A DNA stretch of 64,000 nucleotides from Escherichia phage AnnaHegner_Bas87. Positions within the stretch are counted from its first letter, which is position 1, and every line of letters starts with the position of its first letter. The notes beneath the pieces were generated by a model. That model was not told the origin of the DNA. It saw nothing but the letters and a program-made list of their open reading frames with translations, and ran no database searches. The DNA is taken from sequence record PQ850594.1. One strand, given 5' to 3'. This document shows positions 28,774 through 35,450 of this stretch, piece by piece. The position numbers and the translations under genes were made by a program.

Positions 28774-29249
28774 TCCAAAACCCTTTCTTCTAAATCATAA
28801 AAGATTTGATTTGTCCCATTATTCTCAACAAGCACTGTTCCATTATCTAACAGGGTAGCAACTTGGGAATAAGGAATGTTCTTTAACATCAGAGAGTTGG
28901 TGGTTGGCTTCTTTTTGAAGTAAGCGACAGGCTCAACGTAGAAGGAAATCCCACGACTCCCTTTGATTGGAGTACTCGAAGACAATACCCAAATTGTTTC
29001 TGGATTGCCTACTCCTTTTTCAACACCGACCTCAACAAGAGAGTCAGCAGCGAAACCTACAGGACGCCTAGAAGAACCAAGCAACCGAATATATCCCGGT
29101 AGTTTTGACATATTAGACCAACTGCCAGTGTTTTCATTAAACATAGGTCGTGTATTTCCATATGCCCAAACCTGATTATCACAATCGCGGGCTATGTATT
29201 TGGTCCACTCAGGAACATCATATTCTCTTCCTTCAAAAATAGCTTTCAT
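28770..29249 (-). CDS. hypothetical protein
   Basis: ORF only. Confidence 0.4.
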   Translation of the reverse strand: MKAIFEGREYDVPEWTKYIARDCDNQVWAYGNTRPMFNENTGSWSNMSKLPGYIRLLGSSRRPVGFAADSLVEVGVEKGVGNPETIWVLSSSTPIKGSRGISFYVEPVAYFKKKPTTNSLMLKNIPYSQVATLLDNGTVLVENNGTNQIFYDLEERVLE

Positions 29250-29558
29250 TTAGATAACCTTGTGCTTGTAGGTGTTAGGTTTGTAGTAATGCAACCAGTT
29301 TATGTGTTGCTTCTGTTCAAGGTAGTGCCTGCAATCATGACAAAAAGCATGACCCAAACCTGTTTCCTCGTTCAGCTTGAAATTGATAAGAAGCTTCTTC
29401 TTTTGACAGAAGCTACATACTTTAGTGGGCTTCACGTAGTGCGTCCCATGAGATTGGGAAAAGTTTACGAAGCTCTTCATCAACAGTTGATGCGAATAAA
29501 CGCACTTCGTATTGAGCATGGTCTGACAGACGTTGACGACACAACTCTGACCAACCAA
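29250..29558 (-). CDS. Cys-rich putative zinc-binding protein
   Basis: CSFCQKKK...CHDCRH; start uncertain because it overlaps the ThyX-like 3' end. Confidence 0.3.
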   Translation of the reverse strand: MVGQSCVVNVCQTMLNTKCVYSHQLLMKSFVNFSQSHGTHYVKPTKVCSFCQKKKLLINFKLNEETGLGHAFCHDCRHYLEQKQHINWLHYYKPNTYKHKVI

Positions 29559-30072
29559 ATAAAGACCCTGTCCACACCCACTCAGTGATCATGCCCTGAG
29601 GCAATACGAATCGAGCTTGCTCTGGAGCGATAAACTTAATCAATTCATCATACGACTCAAGAGCTGTTTCGTATGCCCGATTAATCAGAACTAGTGCAGA
29701 GTTTTGTGCTCCTGTGGTGAGGAGATTCCCCGCACCTGCATGGAGGTCCGAAGGTCTTTCAAAAATCTCTTTAGGGATGAAGAGTTCAACTGCTCCATCT
29801 TTATACCGCCGGGACATTTCGTTCCATGAGAATCCAACTTGGTGTTTATTGAGTTGTCTAGCAATTGCAATGGGAGCCTTACACCGAAAGGTGATTTGAG
29901 GGTGTCGAAAAGGAGTCACATGACGTTCCCGAGCTAAGAATTTAATCAACCGCTCGTCACGTTCGTTCAGATCACCATCTCGTGTCACACCAAAGGAAAC
30001 CCTTGCTGCATTGACCACAGATTTGTCGGAACCCATGTGCTCTACCAGTGTTGCTTTTAAAAAATCAGACAT
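29422..30072 (-). CDS. thyX: ThyX-family (flavin-dependent thymidylate synthase-like) protein with divergent signature
   Basis: overall ThyX pattern but the canonical RHR-X7-8-S motif reads KHQVGFSWNEMSRRY. Confidence 0.55.
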   Translation of the reverse strand: MSDFLKATLVEHMGSDKSVVNAARVSFGVTRDGDLNERDERLIKFLARERHVTPFRHPQITFRCKAPIAIARQLNKHQVGFSWNEMSRRYKDGAVELFIPKEIFERPSDLHAGAGNLLTTGAQNSALVLINRAYETALESYDELIKFIAPEQARFVLPQGMITEWVWTGSLFGWSELCRQRLSDHAQYEVRLFASTVDEELRKLFPISWDALREAH

Positions 30073-30532
30073 ACTTCAACTTCTCCTTGTTGTAAACTTC
30101 TTCTGCCTCTTCGCAAGAAGCAAAAGTCCCTAAATGTATATTCTTACCTTTGACGCCAATGATGGCTCGGTATCTATCACCAGAAGTTGTCTTACGAAGA
30201 TACACACCCCTAGGAAGATTTCCTATCTTGCTATCAACATCATACTGCTTTCTGTTATGGCAGTTAGTGGATGGATTTACATCTCTTAGGTTATCAATCG
30301 AATCATTAAGTTTGTTCTGGTCGATGTGGTCAATTTCAAACTCAGGAAACTTTCCATGAACAAAGAACCAAGCAAGGCGACAAGCTCTGTAGCTTTTCCC
30401 TTCATACTCAATATAACGATAACCTAGAGAAGATACATATCCAGCTTGATTCCCTTTAACCCTTCGACCTTTTGTGTTCTTCCAGAAGAAGGCTCCAGTC
30501 TTAGGGTTATATTCCAAGTCATCTTGTATCAT
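30065..30532 (-). CDS. HNH homing endonuclease (HNH_3-type with AP2-like domain)
   Basis: YRACRLAW...IDHIDQNKLNDSIDNLR and AP2-like RYRAIIGVKGKNIHLGTF..EEAEEVY; stop overlaps the ThyX-like start. Confidence 0.7.
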   Translation of the reverse strand: MIQDDLEYNPKTGAFFWKNTKGRRVKGNQAGYVSSLGYRYIEYEGKSYRACRLAWFFVHGKFPEFEIDHIDQNKLNDSIDNLRDVNPSTNCHNRKQYDVDSKIGNLPRGVYLRKTTSGDRYRAIIGVKGKNIHLGTFASCEEAEEVYNKEKLKYV

Positions 30533-30539
30533 CTCTTCC

Positions 30540-30752
30540 TTAATAATAAACTTTTGGTACTACTACAATGAAACCCGCTGCTGTCATATATGCACGGTGG
30601 ATTGAAATCTTCGAATCACGACCCATCTTCTTGAGGGCACGTTTAGTGCATCGTGCAGTTTTACGAGTAGCACACGTGTTAACCCTTGGATACTCCATCT
30701 CTGGATATTCAGAAACAACAGCCCAAAAATACACATCTTTTCCTTGAGTCAT
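30540..30752 (-). CDS. small protein, KVYY family member 1
   Basis: W.VV...TR..AR..KRALK....ISI.....Y ending KVYY; four paralogs in the window. Confidence 0.4.
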   Translation of the reverse strand: MTQGKDVYFWAVVSEYPEMEYPRVNTCATRKTARCTKRALKKMGRDSKISIHRAYMTAAGFIVVVPKVYY

Positions 30753-30767
30753 AATAGCACCTATTCT

Positions 30768-30983
30768 TTAATAGTAAATCTTTTTATAAATCAGGTTGCT
30801 TCCACTTTCTGTTTCAATCCCTTTCTGGATTGTAATCTTAGAAGCACCGGTATTAGCAATTTTTAAAGCTCGTTTAAAGCGGCGAGCCTCTCTCCGTGTT
30901 GTGTATGAGGAGAAGCTAGGGATTGTACTATCAAAATTAAACCACTTAACTACCCAAAAAGTAATCCAAGGTTTCTTTTCCAT
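30768..30983 (-). CDS. small protein, KVYY family member 2
   Basis: TRREARRFKRALK...ITIQK ending KIYY. Confidence 0.4.
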   Translation of the reverse strand: MEKKPWITFWVVKWFNFDSTIPSFSSYTTRREARRFKRALKIANTGASKITIQKGIETESGSNLIYKKIYY

Positions 30984-30984
30984 A

Positions 30985-31260
30985 TTAAATACCTTTCAGA
31001 GCTGTATCTAAAAACGCACGGAGGTTTGATTCAGTTTGCATACCGGACAAGCTGTAGTGAGCACCACTGTTCATGTTAGGAACCACAAAGGCTGGGATAC
31101 TGCGAACACCATATTCAATGGCTCGCTCTCGACCATCACCTTCAGAGATATTTACTTCTTCAACTTCTACGTTGTAATCAGCTACAACTTTCTTAAACAC
31201 AGGAGCCATAGCTGCACATGGAGCACAGGAATTACTATAAAACTTAATTACTTTACTCAT
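30985..31260 (-). CDS. thioredoxin/glutaredoxin-fold protein
   Basis: CAPC active-site motif; start moved to internal Met (MSKVIKF) with AAGGAA RBS. Confidence 0.6.
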   Translation of the reverse strand: MSKVIKFYSNSCAPCAAMAPVFKKVVADYNVEVEEVNISEGDGRERAIEYGVRSIPAFVVPNMNSGAHYSLSGMQTESNLRAFLDTALKGI

Positions 31261-31450
31261 TTTATTCCTTGTTAATAAACAGATTGATATGACGCTGGGT
31301 AGCAGGAACAACAATAAAAGATTTATACTGACCTTTTGCTAAGTCATGAGCAATCTTCTTTGTCTGACCAAGACCCATCACACAGCCACTAACGATAATG
31401 GCATGTGCTTGTAATTCTTCAGGTAGGTTTAGTTTCACTCTTTGGATTCC

Positions 31451-31636
31451 TTATAGCATACAAAGAATAATAACAAGAGGTAGTGTTATAGCAAAATGTA
31501 CCAGAACAACACTACCTAGCTTGATAGCTTTAACATCCTCTTCTGCTGGGTTTTCTTTAATTGCTAAATTTCGAGCTTTATATATAACAGTACCAACTAT
31601 TAACGACCACACGGCCCACACAATCAGTGAAATCAT
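31451..31636 (-). CDS. small two-TM membrane protein (paralog pair)
   Basis: two hydrophobic helices around a KENP loop. Confidence 0.4.
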   Translation of the reverse strand: MISLIVWAVWSLIVGTVIYKARNLAIKENPAEEDVKAIKLGSVVLVHFAITLPLVIILCML

Positions 31637-31645
31637 ATCAAACCC

Positions 31646-31867
31646 TTATGCAGTCAACAGGTGGAGAAGGAAAGGAATGACAACAGAGAAAACTACCAGA
31701 GCAATGCTACCATGTTTAATAGGTTTGGCATCATTTGGATTTTCTTTAAGCATCTGCTTCTGAGCCAGATAAACGATACCACCAACAAGGATTGCCCATA
31801 CAGACCATACGATTGCTGAAAACATACTCATATCCTTATAAAGAAGTTCGCCCCACCTCTTGAACAA
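31646..31867 (-). CDS. small two-TM membrane protein (paralog pair)
   Basis: AIVWSVWAILVGGIVY...KENPND...ALVVFSVVIPFLL. Confidence 0.4.
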   Translation of the reverse strand: MFKRWGELLYKDMSMFSAIVWSVWAILVGGIVYLAQKQMLKENPNDAKPIKHGSIALVVFSVVIPFLLHLLTA

Positions 31868-31888
31868 AGAGACAGGGCGGAGGTTTGA

Positions 31889-32464
31889 TTAGTAAGACAC
31901 ATCACCACTGGAGTGGGACATGTTGCTCTTGACGAAGTAACAGAACTTGCCAAGACCTTCATTAATTTCTTGAAGCATACTCTGGTCCACTGGATAGGTG
32001 CACAAGTCTGAATCAAACTCATCCATCTTCTCAATGATACACATAAGAGTCATGCACATGTCGGAAAGCATACCGTCCATGTCGAGATCAGCGTTACCTT
32101 CTCGGAACCAAGCATGGCCTAAATAATTACTAGCAGTAGCATCCACTTTAACACAATGAAAGCGCATACGCTCTGCTATTCGGTCGCCTGCCTCACGAGC
32201 ATAATCTTCTAGTTCATCGAACATACCATGAACACCTTGGAAACCAGCTCCAGAGACGTTCCAGTGGTAGTTCTTTGCTTTGATGTGTAGAAGTTCAAGG
32301 TTAGCTTGCACACCACACAAGATGTGTTCTAAGCTGTTACCGCTAATCAGTTTATTCATTCCCTCAAGACGAGAGATAGAAGAGTCAGTAGTAGAGAATG
32401 GGTTGCTAGAACCCACTCGTGTTAGTTCTGGTAAGTCGAAGACATTATTATGCATTAGGTGCAT
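31889..32464 (-). CDS. Dps/ferritin-like protein
   Basis: YHWNVSGAGFQGVHGMFDELEDYAREAGDRIAERM matches the Dps ferroxidase-site signature. Confidence 0.6.
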   Translation of the reverse strand: MHLMHNNVFDLPELTRVGSSNPFSTTDSSISRLEGMNKLISGNSLEHILCGVQANLELLHIKAKNYHWNVSGAGFQGVHGMFDELEDYAREAGDRIAERMRFHCVKVDATASNYLGHAWFREGNADLDMDGMLSDMCMTLMCIIEKMDEFDSDLCTYPVDQSMLQEINEGLGKFCYFVKSNMSHSSGDVSY

Positions 32465-32795
32465 CCCCTTCTAAGTTAGTTGAATTAGCTACATTACGAG
32501 CAATGTTATCCATGACCTGCTGGGTAATAACAATGCAATTCTGTGGGTCTACAGACTTAGAACGCCCCATTTCAGGGTCATAAACCTTAACACGCTTGGC
32601 TGTTGAGCCAGTAACTTGCAACACTTTGAGAAGATAACCTTGGTTTCCAATAGACCATGCAACAACATCACGATTCTTGATATAACGACCAAGCATATCA
32701 CGATGATAGAACTGCTGCATAACTTTAGCTTTGCTAATCTCTTCAGATGGCGGGGCCACTTTACTCAAATCTAACATAACTCTCTCCTGTTTCAT
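32448..32795 (-). CDS. hypothetical protein
   Basis: AGGAGAG RBS; AAATGTATA promoter-like variant upstream. Confidence 0.4.
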   Translation of the reverse strand: MKQERVMLDLSKVAPPSEEISKAKVMQQFYHRDMLGRYIKNRDVVAWSIGNQGYLLKVLQVTGSTAKRVKVYDPEMGRSKSVDPQNCIVITQQVMDNIARNVANSTNLEGDAPNA

Positions 32796-32813
32796 ACAAT
32801 ATTCTTATACTGT

Positions 32814-32822
32814 ATATACATT
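32814..32822 (-). promoter_or_regulatory. promoter-like variant AAATGTATA (minus strand)
   Basis: one-mismatch variant of TAATGTATA about 20 nt upstream of the 32795 start. Confidence 0.3.
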
Positions 32823-32847
32823 TGAGAGTTATCATATCTACTACCAA

Positions 32848-33063
32848 CTAGTAATAAACCTTGCTGGATATGAATCCAGCACTGTTATGGATATTTTCAA
32901 TCCAACGATGAATCTCCACCTTTTCAGCGATTCCTAAAGCTTTTGTAGCTTTTATAGTTTTCTTAGCAAGACGAGCCTCTTGTCTTGTGTTGAATAATTG
33001 AATACAATCACCACCAAGAGCTTTGTTAGCCCATTTAGTACGAACTGCCCATAATTTATCCAT
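32848..33063 (-). CDS. small protein, KVYY family member 3
   Basis: NTRQEARLAKKTIK...VEIHR ending KVYY. Confidence 0.4.
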   Translation of the reverse strand: MDKLWAVRTKWANKALGGDCIQLFNTRQEARLAKKTIKATKALGIAEKVEIHRWIENIHNSAGFISSKVYY

Positions 33064-33275
33064 TAGTAATGTACCTTTCCGCTGATATAGAAACGACCTG
33101 ATTTAAAGTCTTGAGCTTTGTGGATAGTGATCTTATTAATTGTGCTTTCACAACTTAACAAGAACTTCTTATGAGCGCGAGCTTCTTGACGGGTATTCCT
33201 AATACCCATTGACTCTGTACCACTGCTCCAGTGAATACGAACTACCCAACGTCTTTTCATTGTTCCAAACTCCAT
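33063..33275 (-). CDS. small protein, KVYY family member 4
   Basis: NTRQEARAHKKFL...ITIHK ending KVHY. Confidence 0.4.
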   Translation of the reverse strand: MEFGTMKRRWVVRIHWSSGTESMGIRNTRQEARAHKKFLLSCESTINKITIHKAQDFKSGRFYISGKVHY

Positions 33276-33466
33276 TATCTGTCAACCAATTTAGGGACAA
33301 ACTGCATTACACAGACCTGACTACGAGGGAGATTTATTTCACAAGCGGCTCTTCTCGTCTCAATCTTAACGCTAGAATCTGGACCAACGTTAGATATAAA
33401 TACTCCCATAGCAAATGCCCCAACTACAAAACCAATAGCTAAGTAAGTAGCTTTTTCTTCTTTCAT
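33275..33466 (-). CDS. small membrane protein
   Basis: single hydrophobic helix LAIGFVVGAFAMGVFI. Confidence 0.35.
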   Translation of the reverse strand: MKEEKATYLAIGFVVGAFAMGVFISNVGPDSSVKIETRRAACEINLPRSQVCVMQFVPKLVDR

Positions 33467-33471
33467 CTTGG

Positions 33472-34005
33472 TTATACACCTTTAGATGCAACTACCCCAT
33501 TGCTGCCATTGTAACGACCCTTCACTGCATAGGAATCATCACCAGCGTGAGAGTGTTCAAACATAACCATCTGACCAACACGCATCCCAGCACGAACTCG
33601 TAAGCTGTGGTTGTGGGTAACGTTATGGAATTCAAAGGTCAGCTTACTGCTGTTAAACCCTGCATCAGCCCAACCAGCATGTAAGTGGTTCAAACCACAA
33701 CGAGCCATTGAGGAGCGAAGTACAAACAGACTTGAGATGTTATCTGGAAGGTTAAACTCTTCCATTGAGTGCGCTAAGAAGAATTGTCCCGGAGTGATGA
33801 CAATACCATCTTCAGGGATTTTCACCTCTTTCCACTTGAGGTTTTCTTTAGCATCAATGTCAACAATGCCGTCAGCCTGTTCTTCAACAAGGATAGTATC
33901 ACCAATACGGATATCCACACTAGCAGCGTTAACATATTTATGCTCCGCATCTAAAAAGCCATTATCAATAACACTGTGTAATTCTTGAGAACCTAAAAGA
34001 CTCAT
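33472..34005 (-). CDS. dcd: dCTP deaminase / dUTPase-superfamily enzyme
   Basis: HAGWADAGFNS...GMRVGQMV matches the dCTP deaminase G.iDpGf...pGmri.Q pattern. Confidence 0.65.
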   Translation of the reverse strand: MSLLGSQELHSVIDNGFLDAEHKYVNAASVDIRIGDTILVEEQADGIVDIDAKENLKWKEVKIPEDGIVITPGQFFLAHSMEEFNLPDNISSLFVLRSSMARCGLNHLHAGWADAGFNSSKLTFEFHNVTHNHSLRVRAGMRVGQMVMFEHSHAGDDSYAVKGRYNGSNGVVASKGV

Positions 34006-35450
34006 GAGTTTCTGTTTCCTTGTACAGATGATGCCAAATTGTTAATCATGTTACGAGCTGTTTCACGAGTCAGCGTAACACCTGCTAAGTTACTATCAAG
34101 TTCACCAACTAATTCACGAGCTGTTGCTCGGAGTTCTGCACCAAGTGTAGTGTTAGAATGAGCCAGACCATTACGACGACCGACAGGTCGAGGAGTATTG
34201 TTAGCATCATTAGCTAAAGATGCAAAACCAATACGAGCAGCTTCACGAGCGGCTATAGCTGCTACCCGATCTTCCGTAGGGGTTGGCAAATCACCAACTT
34301 CTACACGTTCTATATCACTAGAACGTAGACCCTGAACAACAGAGCTAACTGTTTCCCATGAACGACGGGAGCGCTGCAAATCACCCATAGATGGAGAAGA
34401 AGCAGGTCGAACAGTTACTCCACCTGTATCATGAGTGACGTGCCATGTACGAGTACCCATTCCAGAAGAACGGGCACTACCAAAACTACCAGTGAAAGTA
34501 TCACGAGGTGACTCTGTAGCAGGTGCTGCGAATCTTGTCTGTTGCCAAGAGTCACGTCTGTCAGTTCCCGGAGTCCAAGGCTGCGTAATTGCTTCAGCAC
34601 CTATAGTGGTTAATCCGCTAGACCATTCTGTCTGTAGATTAACTTCCTCGTCCAGATAACTACGACCCCTTTCCTGAGGAATGTTTAATATAGTTTCCAT
34701 CATCTTCAGGGTATAATGACGACGCTGATTCTGATATAAATTTACACCAGCCATAGGTCCAACTAAATCACTAATCAGGTGAACTTCTGGCTCACCGAAA
34801 GCTCCCATTGCAAGGTGCATGTATTCAGTAGAACTGCTATAAACTGCAACAGTTGCTTCAGGCCACTTCTTGTGAACATACTTCATTTCACGACTAGATA
34901 CCACAGGAATGTCACGAGTGTATGACATTGCAAACAAACCTTCGTTTGACACATACAGATTACCAAGAGTCATAAACCCTTGACAGATCATAGGAAAGCG
35001 ACGGCTTAAAGTATCCATATCCAAAGGTAGATTAATCATCATCTGGATTTTAACTTGATCAATCTCAATTTCCAGAATCTCTTGGAAAGTGAAAAGCGCT
35101 TCAGCATAGGTTGTCCCGTTAACAGGCTGAATTAGTCGAGATGTAACCTGAAGCCCCTTACTTTCTGTCCAAGATAAGAAGTTGTCAAGGAATAGTGCAG
35201 CATTACCTACGTTAGCAGGGCTGTTTTCTTGACGAGTGTTCCAACGAAGCCCTCCTTGAACTAGGAAGATATCAACATCATTCGGAGTTCTATTTTGAAA
35301 GAACGTATCACGGATAGCACCACCTGCAATAACAGGATAGATGCCATCAGGGACTACGTTATCTCTGATCAAATTACGAATCAGGTCAAGCCCTACACTG
35401 AGGGCTTCTCCTTCTTGAAGGTTCAATTCAGATAGTGGAATCTTAATCAT
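34002..35450 (-). CDS. Pol-beta-superfamily nucleotidyltransferase (CCA-adding/poly(A) polymerase-like head) with low-complexity C-terminal half
   Basis: PVIAGGAIRDTFF...PNDVDIFLV (GG.xRD plus DxD); C-terminal ~200 aa Ser/Arg/Thr/Gly-rich. Confidence 0.5.
   Translation of the reverse strand: MIKIPLSELNLQEGEALSVGLDLIRNLIRDNVVPDGIYPVIAGGAIRDTFFQNRTPNDVDIFLVQGGLRWNTRQENSPANVGNAALFLDNFLSWTESKGLQVTSRLIQPVNGTTYAEALFTFQEILEIEIDQVKIQMMINLPLDMDTLSRRFPMICQGFMTLGNLYVSNEGLFAMSYTRDIPVVSSREMKYVHKKWPEATVAVYSSSTEYMHLAMGAFGEPEVHLISDLVGPMAGVNLYQNQRRHYTLKMMETILNIPQERGRSYLDEEVNLQTEWSSGLTTIGAEAITQPWTPGTDRRDSWQQTRFAAPATESPRDTFTGSFGSARSSGMGTRTWHVTHDTGGVTVRPASSPSMGDLQRSRRSWETVSSVVQGLRSSDIERVEVGDLPTPTEDRVAAIAAREAARIGFASLANDANNTPRPVGRRNGLAHSNTTLGAELRATARELVGELDSNLAGVTLTRETARNMINNLASSVQGNRNS

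Follow-up and report, generated by a model that had tools for sequence, protein, structure and literature searches.

Small, lineage-restricted proteins encoded by several paralogous gene copies are a familiar feature of the early-gene families of phages T4 and T5 and of anti-defence accessory regions, where such genes lie in mosaic hotspots with conserved flanks. The family considered here belongs to the phiEco32-like phages, which are abundant, have a broad host range and are candidates for therapy, and its genes, which the existing annotations of about 98 genomes list as hypothetical proteins, have been grouped as PHROG 4939, which carries no assigned function. The stretch analysed, 64,000 nucleotides (nt) of Escherichia phage AnnaHegner_Bas87 (PQ850594.1; hereafter the window), contains four genes of this family, named A to D, which lie near those of a thymidylate-supplying enzyme (ThyX; thyX) and a dCTP deaminase (Dcd; dcd), and which are as follows:

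30540-30752, minus strand: paralog A, 70 amino acids (aa), a second, rare thyX-proximal copy
30768-30983, minus strand: paralog B, 71 aa, of the thyX-proximal orthogroup
32848-33063, minus strand: paralog C, 71 aa, of the gp69 or position-3 orthogroup
33063-33260 (33275 with an upstream in-frame ATG), minus strand: paralog D, 65 aa (70 aa), of the gp70 or position-2 orthogroup

The four proteins are members of the same family as PHROG 4939, given that they match the full profile and share its synteny slots (after dcd and before thyX), and its listed members include phiEco32 gp69/gp70/gp71, ECBP2_0060/0067/0068 and KBNP1711 gp064/gp071-073. As in the T4 and T5 early arrays, the genes are small, lineage-restricted, multi-copy and located in a mosaic hotspot, but, unlike those arrays, the paralogs are old and positionally orthologous, are near-core (D being found in every relative) and uniformly basic, and share one invariant motif. 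No paper describing the family or its paralogy was found in the literature search, and what is new here is one further member set and its uncommon arrangement of two copies at each of the two sites (2+2).

Homology, charge and predicted fold of the four proteins

The first-pass annotation of this DNA had described a four-member family arranged as two tandem pairs, and four minus-strand open reading frames (ORFs) encoding homologs of 65-71 aa were found exactly where it had placed them. The genes of each pair are closely joined, with A located 15 nt downstream of B and the stop of D overlapping the start of C (TAATG), and ribosome-binding sites and coupled starts are present among the four. The only amendment concerns D, which had been given as 70 aa from 33275: this ORF exists, but the start is most likely the second ATG (33260; MKRRW..., 65 aa), because GGAG lies at the right distance from it, ~9 nt upstream, and the same start is annotated in phage ECBP2. 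The proposed motif, W.V...TR.EAR..K...I.IH/Q followed by a C-terminal K-V/I-x-Y, was recovered in the four-way alignment, which contains 11 invariant positions (W10, V12, T29, R30, A33, R34, K37, K48, I51, K67, and Y70 in the numbering of A).

An alternative in which the four proteins are alike in composition only is contradicted by the shuffling tests, by composition-adjusted BLASTP and by the PHROG profile that they share. The Smith-Waterman scores of the pairs were 50-90, compared with 22-24 +/- 4 in 500 composition-preserving shuffles per pair (z 6.6-14.7), and none of the shuffles reached the observed score, while the BLASTP E value was 6e-10 for C-D and, at its weakest, 2e-4 for A-D. The profile phrog_4939 was matched by A (2.4e-12), B (6e-22), C (2.6e-22) and D (3.5e-26), from profile positions 1-4 to 67 of 67, and a six-frame scan of the whole window with a hidden Markov model (HMM) of the family returned exactly four copies and no hidden extras. 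Taken together, the alignment, the shuffles, BLASTP, the profile and the scan confirm the earlier observation, and the four genes are real, expressed-looking members of one orphan family, maintained by purifying selection.

Each member is a single-domain alpha/beta protein of 65-78 aa and is strongly basic, with an isoelectric point of 9.7-10.8 and a net charge of +6 to +10 in 23 of 23 diverse members. In charge density, all four paralogs are among the 15 highest of the ~105 ORFs of the window, where the median small ORF has a net charge of +2. The AlphaFold2 models of D (predicted local distance difference test, pLDDT, 78) and C (pLDDT 84.9, predicted template modelling score, pTM, 0.69) both have the order beta1-beta2-helix-beta3-beta4; the C-terminal tail is their least confident part, and in the better model, that of C, it packs back on the domain.

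Across 23-28 sequences, a Trp on beta1 and the T-R-x-x-A-R at the start of the sole helix are invariant, accompanied by a Lys (+3), which completes a T-R-x-x-A-R-x-x-K stripe, and by a near-invariant terminal Tyr, which is the last residue of about 90% of the members, some others ending in R (P0013 and the second copy in L017). The helical periodicity of the alignment, combined with the helix limits of the models, would place the hydrophobic positions 27, 30 and 34 (Ala and two hydrophobic residues) on the buried side facing the sheet, and R24, R28 and K31-32 on an adjacent exposed stripe. The C-terminal K-V might have been a by-product of the ribosome-binding site of the following gene, an explanation that fits D only (GGAAAGGT before the C start) and fails for A, B and C, so that K-V is conserved at the protein level.

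The searches for known domains were uniformly negative. No Pfam entry was matched at E<=10 by the four proteins or the 23 diverse members in hmmscan, the PDB sequence search returned noise only, with nothing significant, the best Foldseek hit against the PDB had an E value of 0.27, with no fold match above noise, and no fold or signature motif of the known nucleic-acid-binding folds (OB, RRM, KH, HU/IHF, Sso7d, winged helix, and others) was recognisable. The nearest likeness is presumably that to DUF2188 (PF09954), the HicB N-terminal domain and YegP/DUF1508, which we take to be similar in size, in the 'W-x-V ... T/S-x-x-E-A' pattern, in the strand hairpin followed by a helix and in the later 'I-H' strand. 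However, no member matched any of these modules in the hmmscan at that threshold, the shared pattern may be a mere common helix N-cap, and DUF2188 itself has, to our knowledge, no known function. The generic two-layer alpha/beta folds (ferredoxin-like half, palm-like, PsaD-like) score as they would for any small beta-alpha-beta-beta unit, and, with 4-19% identity and no catalytic or binding residues in common, they are not evidence of homology.

Distribution, age and recombination of the family

The region 29000-35000 of the window matches 98 phage records, all of them Escherichia/Shigella phages of the Gordonclarkvirinae (phiEco32-like C3 podoviruses), and its best match is ECBP2 (Suseptimavirus; nucleotide identity 94%, query coverage 96%). 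The window is a Gordonclarkvirinae coliphage with ECBP2 as its nearest relative. A search of 50,697 phage records with D gave matches in this subfamily only, in 98/98 of its records. A distant member occurs in two Salmonella-phage records, one classified in the Grimontviridae, and in this latter phage the most distant member stands immediately upstream of thyX, with a second copy elsewhere in the genome. The divergent members on metagenome contigs keep the synteny, lying between dcd and the gp68-like/Dps genes.

Among proteins at large, a word-indexed search of 5.8 billion sequences returned 11 clusters, and HMMER, run exhaustively against 1.84 billion representative proteins, returned just 22, of which 21 correspond to stand-alone proteins, 65-78 aa in length. 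A 296-aa match (P0021) was rejected as a low-complexity repeat artefact, and no domain fusion that might serve as a clue to function was present among the true matches in the representative set. Judging from these searches, the family is restricted to the phiEco32/7-11-like lineage, i.e., the Gordonclarkvirinae, reaching the Grimontviridae.

Within these genomes, the genes occupy two fixed sites of a nucleotide-metabolism and replication block, a tandem array after dcd (gp71, gp70 and gp69 types) and one or two copies before thyX, with 2-4 copies per genome. The copy-number comparison proposed in the first-pass annotation, carried out by HMM mapping of relatives, did reveal differences (2+1, 2+2, 3+0 and 3+1):

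phiEco32: three copies after dcd (gp71, gp70, gp69), none before thyX
EP335: three after dcd, none before thyX
KBNP1711: three after dcd, one before thyX
4E8: three after dcd, one before thyX
ECBP2: two after dcd, one before thyX
Window: two after dcd (D, C), two before thyX (B, A)

The 2+2 arrangement was also found in TH42 and several metagenome contigs. In the window, a 63-aa membrane ORF fills the slot after dcd where most relatives have a gp71-type copy, and KBNP1711 has both. Across the 98 related database records, the D type was detected in all 98, the position-1 (gp71) type in 65, the C type in 43 (a count limited by divergence) and the thyX-proximal copy in 40, 18 of these having the B allele (at least 88% identity) and 22 an allele less than 40% identical. 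Paralog A was present in a single record (TH42, 93%) and on 8 metagenome contigs. Its arrival together with the HNH endonuclease gene, which in the window separates it from thyX, is ruled out, given that the order B-A-thyX without this gene is found in the four places shown, all of them metagenome contigs.

In a neighbour-joining tree of 38 members, the clades follow the position of the gene and not the phage, i.e., gp71 or position 1, gp70 or position 2 (D), gp69 or position 3 (C), and thyX-proximal (B, with which A also groups), and each clade has its own signature, such as the C-terminal SGRxYISGKVHY of the D type. These four position-specific orthogroups are ancient, older than the genera of the subfamily. 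The paralogs are 28-38% identical to one another and retain only 17-34 nt of DNA-level similarity, so that the duplications are ancient and each copy has been kept as a gene in its own right. The ratios of nonsynonymous to synonymous substitutions (dN/dS) between close orthologs are 0.10-0.12 for A, 0.08-0.37 for B and 0.09 for D, compared with 0.01-0.09 in the neighbouring genes, and synonymous changes predominate in A and D, a pattern that shows purifying selection.

Over longer distances, the family diverges far faster than the enzymes around it, given that C and D are 42% and 48% identical to their phiEco32 counterparts, whereas the values are 93% for Dcd, 92% for the gp68-like protein, 84% for Dps, 80% for thioredoxin and 79% for ThyX. 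The initial impression of repeated duplication in a rapidly evolving family thus holds in part: the genes are genuine paralogs, their copy number varies and they outpace their enzyme neighbours, but the duplications are neither recent nor repeated, and the low dN/dS of close orthologs is at odds with rapid evolution of the arms-race kind. High identity between paralogs, DNA repeats and raised dN/dS, the marks of recent amplification or of an arms race, were all lacking among the four genes.

One part of the locus has changed in another way, in a segment bounded by the stops of dcd and C:

32848-33471: recombination-swapped cassette, holding the 63-aa membrane ORF, D and C

The nucleotide identity to phage 4E8 is 88-100% up to 32837, falls to 25-67% across 32838-33467 and returns to 78-85% from 33468, and in 4E8 a three-copy array stands in place of the membrane ORF, D and C. 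The D alleles of the 98 records are bimodal, with 20 at >=95% identity, 78 at <60% and none between, and in EK010 and Bas88 D is 97% identical and C only about 70%. Bas88, a K-12-infecting phage of the BASEL collection, is closely related (96-100% for D, 96% for B). The collapse of identity to 4E8, the bimodal alleles and the mismatch between D and C mark the array as a recombination hotspot in which divergent alleles are shuffled as a cassette and sometimes gene by gene.

Proposed nucleic-acid binding and the competing explanations

The preferred reading, to which we give a probability of about 0.35, is polyanion binding, the most likely ligand being nucleic acid, in the form of phage or host DNA, or RNA. 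Contact would be made by the invariant Arg/Arg/Lys stripe, aided by the conserved aromatic residues. The orthogroups are defined by the variable beta-hairpin and loops, and these regions would direct each paralog to a target or partner of its own; hetero-oligomers may be formed by the products of translationally coupled neighbours. The proteins would act from early or middle infection, alongside the replication and deoxynucleoside triphosphate-supply genes. The basic charge and one charged motif are kept in every paralog and in both phage families, and the motif is invariant while the rest of the sequence diverges to about 30%, which argues for one shared class of ligand. The genomic context is consistent with this, the neighbours including Dcd, the nucleotidyltransferase, the Dps-like protein, thioredoxin, ThyX, the primase/helicase and the DNA polymerase.

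Several points weigh against nucleic-acid binding. Its main weakness is that support from homology and fold is absent, as no known DNA- or RNA-binding family was matched in Pfam (E<=10), the PDB sequences or Foldseek. Several unrelated ORFs of the window are equally basic, as small phage proteins often are, and the invariant Arg and C-terminal Tyr could serve as a structural clasp within the protein instead of contacting a ligand. A weaker point is that the homologs are missing from the 34 proteins identified in the SU10 proteome, in which the neighbours gp65, gp67 and gp68 were found, although this absence is hardly informative because small Lys/Arg-rich proteins yield few tryptic peptides.

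Nearly as likely, and in its own right a possible explanation, is that each paralog binds and inhibits a host protein, for instance a nuclease, a component of a restriction or abortive-infection system, or another acidic surface, in an arms race over host takeover and defence. The Gordonclarkvirinae have been described as remarkably resistant to restriction-modification and to most of the defence systems tested, with no known mechanism (PMC11990801), and inhibitors of this type could contribute to this phenotype. The dcd-proximal array, swapped as a cassette within conserved flanks, with its bimodal D alleles and with breakpoints even between D and C, is what this explanation would lead one to expect, as are the variable copy number, the rare extra copy A, and the small, lineage-restricted, orphan nature of the proteins. 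On the other hand, the paralogs are ancient, with positional orthologs across genera, rather than recent expansions, the short-term dN/dS of 0.08-0.37 gives no gene-level sign of positive selection, and the presence of the D type in every related genome makes it core-like rather than accessory. One charged motif that is invariant across the paralogs and both phage families would be unexpected if the targets differed. The first-pass annotation had favoured host-interaction or anti-defence factors, but no tie to any known protein of this kind emerged, and uniform charge with an invariant basic motif fits diversifying inhibitors poorly.

The position of the genes suggests a further explanation, an unlikely one, in which the copies beside dcd and thyX are accessory or regulatory subunits of the enzymes that supply thymidine triphosphate (dTTP), binding or regulating these enzymes or their mRNAs. 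The tandem array always follows dcd directly, and a copy lies immediately upstream of thyX (~15 nt) in KBNP1711, 4E8, L006, L013-L016 and the distant L010 contig, an adjacency that is repeated in Salmonella phage PKM.Hi.22.6 despite the rearrangement of the remainder of the block. Nevertheless, phiEco32 and EP335 have thyX without an adjacent copy, the HNH gene can separate A from thyX, the thyX-proximal copy is detectable in just 40/98 records, and the adjacency may simply be the inherited synteny of a compact operon. Moreover, the characterised ThyX and Dcd enzymes are not known to require a subunit of this kind.

Finally, it is most improbable that the proteins are substrates or carriers of the peptide-ligase set of these phages (an ATP-grasp RimK-like enzyme, a COOH-NH2 ligase, an amidoligase, a glutamine amidotransferase and a gamma-glutamyl cyclotransferase), with the C-terminal Tyr as the site of amino-acid addition, as for RimK on S6 or tubulin-tyrosine ligase: the prevalent Tyr end, a K-V/I-x-Y tail conserved despite being the least confidently modelled part, and ligase genes in the same strand block of all the relatives examined (the ATP-grasp gene also in the Salmonella phage) are circumstantial, both gene sets being lineage-wide and their co-occurrence therefore uninformative, while some members end in R and the tail packs back on the domain in the better model.

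Genomic setting and significance of the family

Every gene of this region is on the minus strand. In the order of transcription, the block runs from the primase/helicase, exonuclease, nucleotidyltransferase and dcd genes through the 63-aa membrane ORF to D and C, then from a gp36-type promoter through the gp68-like and Dps/ferritin-like genes, two small membrane ORFs, orf58 and thioredoxin to B, A, the HNH endonuclease gene and thyX; according to the annotation of neighbours, it also includes the DNA polymerase. The neighbouring genes are located as follows:

34002-35450, minus strand: nucleotidyltransferase, 482 aa, phrog_12715, next to dcd
33472-34005, minus strand: dCTP deaminase (dcd)
33275-33466, minus strand: 63-aa membrane ORF, phrog_7508, with a hydrophobic N-terminal segment
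32448-32795, minus strand: gp68-like gene
31889-32455, minus strand: Dps/ferritin-like gene
30985-31260, minus strand: thioredoxin
30065-30532, minus strand: homing-type HNH endonuclease (Pfam HNH_3, E 5e-10; phrog_99, E 1e-51)
29422-30072, minus strand: ThyX

The start of B lies 1 nt past the thioredoxin stop. The HNH gene, which is not a member of the family, overlaps the thyX start by 8 nt, and because of its insertion A is not directly beside thyX in this window. This gene is present in ECBP2 and, at 72% identity, in EP335, and is missing at this site in 4E8 and in the contigs L013-L016, in the latter of which A abuts thyX, so that the gap between thioredoxin and thyX looks like an insertion hotspot.

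The consensus of promoters recognised by the gp36 sigma factor of phiEco32 is tAATGTAtA (PMC8948821), and the window has 8 exact matches to its core, AATGTATA, whereas shuffling predicts 2.8:

32815-32822, minus strand: AATGTATA, 26 nt past the C stop, before the gp68-like gene
21175, 23949, 27525 and 32815, minus strand: four sites, each located between 21 and 33 kb within the block of minus-strand genes
5997, 11248, 21247 and 30133, plus strand: the four plus-strand sites

No minus-strand match lies upstream, in the sense of transcription, of the 32815 site in the window, and the plus-strand match at 30133, antisense inside the HNH gene, is probably due to chance. The annotation of 4E8 likewise has a promoter at the position of 32815-32822. 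Given its position directly after C, this putative promoter would separate D/C, at the end of one transcription unit, from B/A in the next. In the SU10 study, coding sequences 69-125, which would include the orthologs of D and C, are early and 25-68 middle (PMC4281155), whereas in the YF01 study the whole replication block is in the middle class (PMC9965538), which leaves the expression class of D/C unsettled. A terminator-like hairpin (32862-32881, minus strand), which has an 8-bp stem and a 4-nt loop and is followed by AGGTTTATTA, is located within the last codons of C, before the gp36-type promoter, and may be a chance occurrence, as such sites are no commoner than in shuffled sequence.

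Other features of the block were also recorded. The nucleotidyltransferase (34002-35450) is hypervariable, being 29-42% identical to its counterparts in phiEco32, KBNP1711 and metagenome relatives, while the adjacent dcd is 88-94% identical. Its identification as Gad2 (anti-Gabija) was discarded, as this rested on a weak precomputed Pfam tag on one homolog, which was reproduced neither for this homolog, with just a sub-threshold match to the PolyA_pol head domain, nor for the window protein. The authors of the BASEL paper speculate that the nucleotidyltransferase and dcd may underlie DNA modification (PMC11990801). A second tandem paralog pair is formed by two predicted membrane proteins of 59-61 aa (31451-31636 and 31646-31825, minus strand), both of which match phrog_9296 (E 2e-30 and 4e-32), with one or two such proteins per relative at 31-100% identity. 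A candidate Cys/His-rich ORF of 102 aa (29250-29558, minus strand) shares ~137 nt with the 3' end of thyX, in a different frame, and corresponds to the coding sequence g061c of phage 4E8, with no annotation in ECBP2.

Overall, the genes constitute a well-supported, functionally open orphan family rather than a new kind of system, and few other near-core gene sets of the phiEco32-like phages are likewise without a functional hint. It is improbable, though conceivable, that the proteins represent a class of small basic DNA-coating or DNA-end-binding factors, whose 2-4 paralogs would act as hetero-oligomers to shield the replicating phage DNA from host nucleases; if true, this would account for the resistance of the Gordonclarkvirinae to restriction-modification and other defences, recorded with the BASEL collection and so far without a mechanism. 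More generally, if either nucleic-acid binding or the blocking of host factors proves to be correct, each phage of the group would gain a role for three or four of its genes, and the result might bear on the reported resistance of these phages to host defences.

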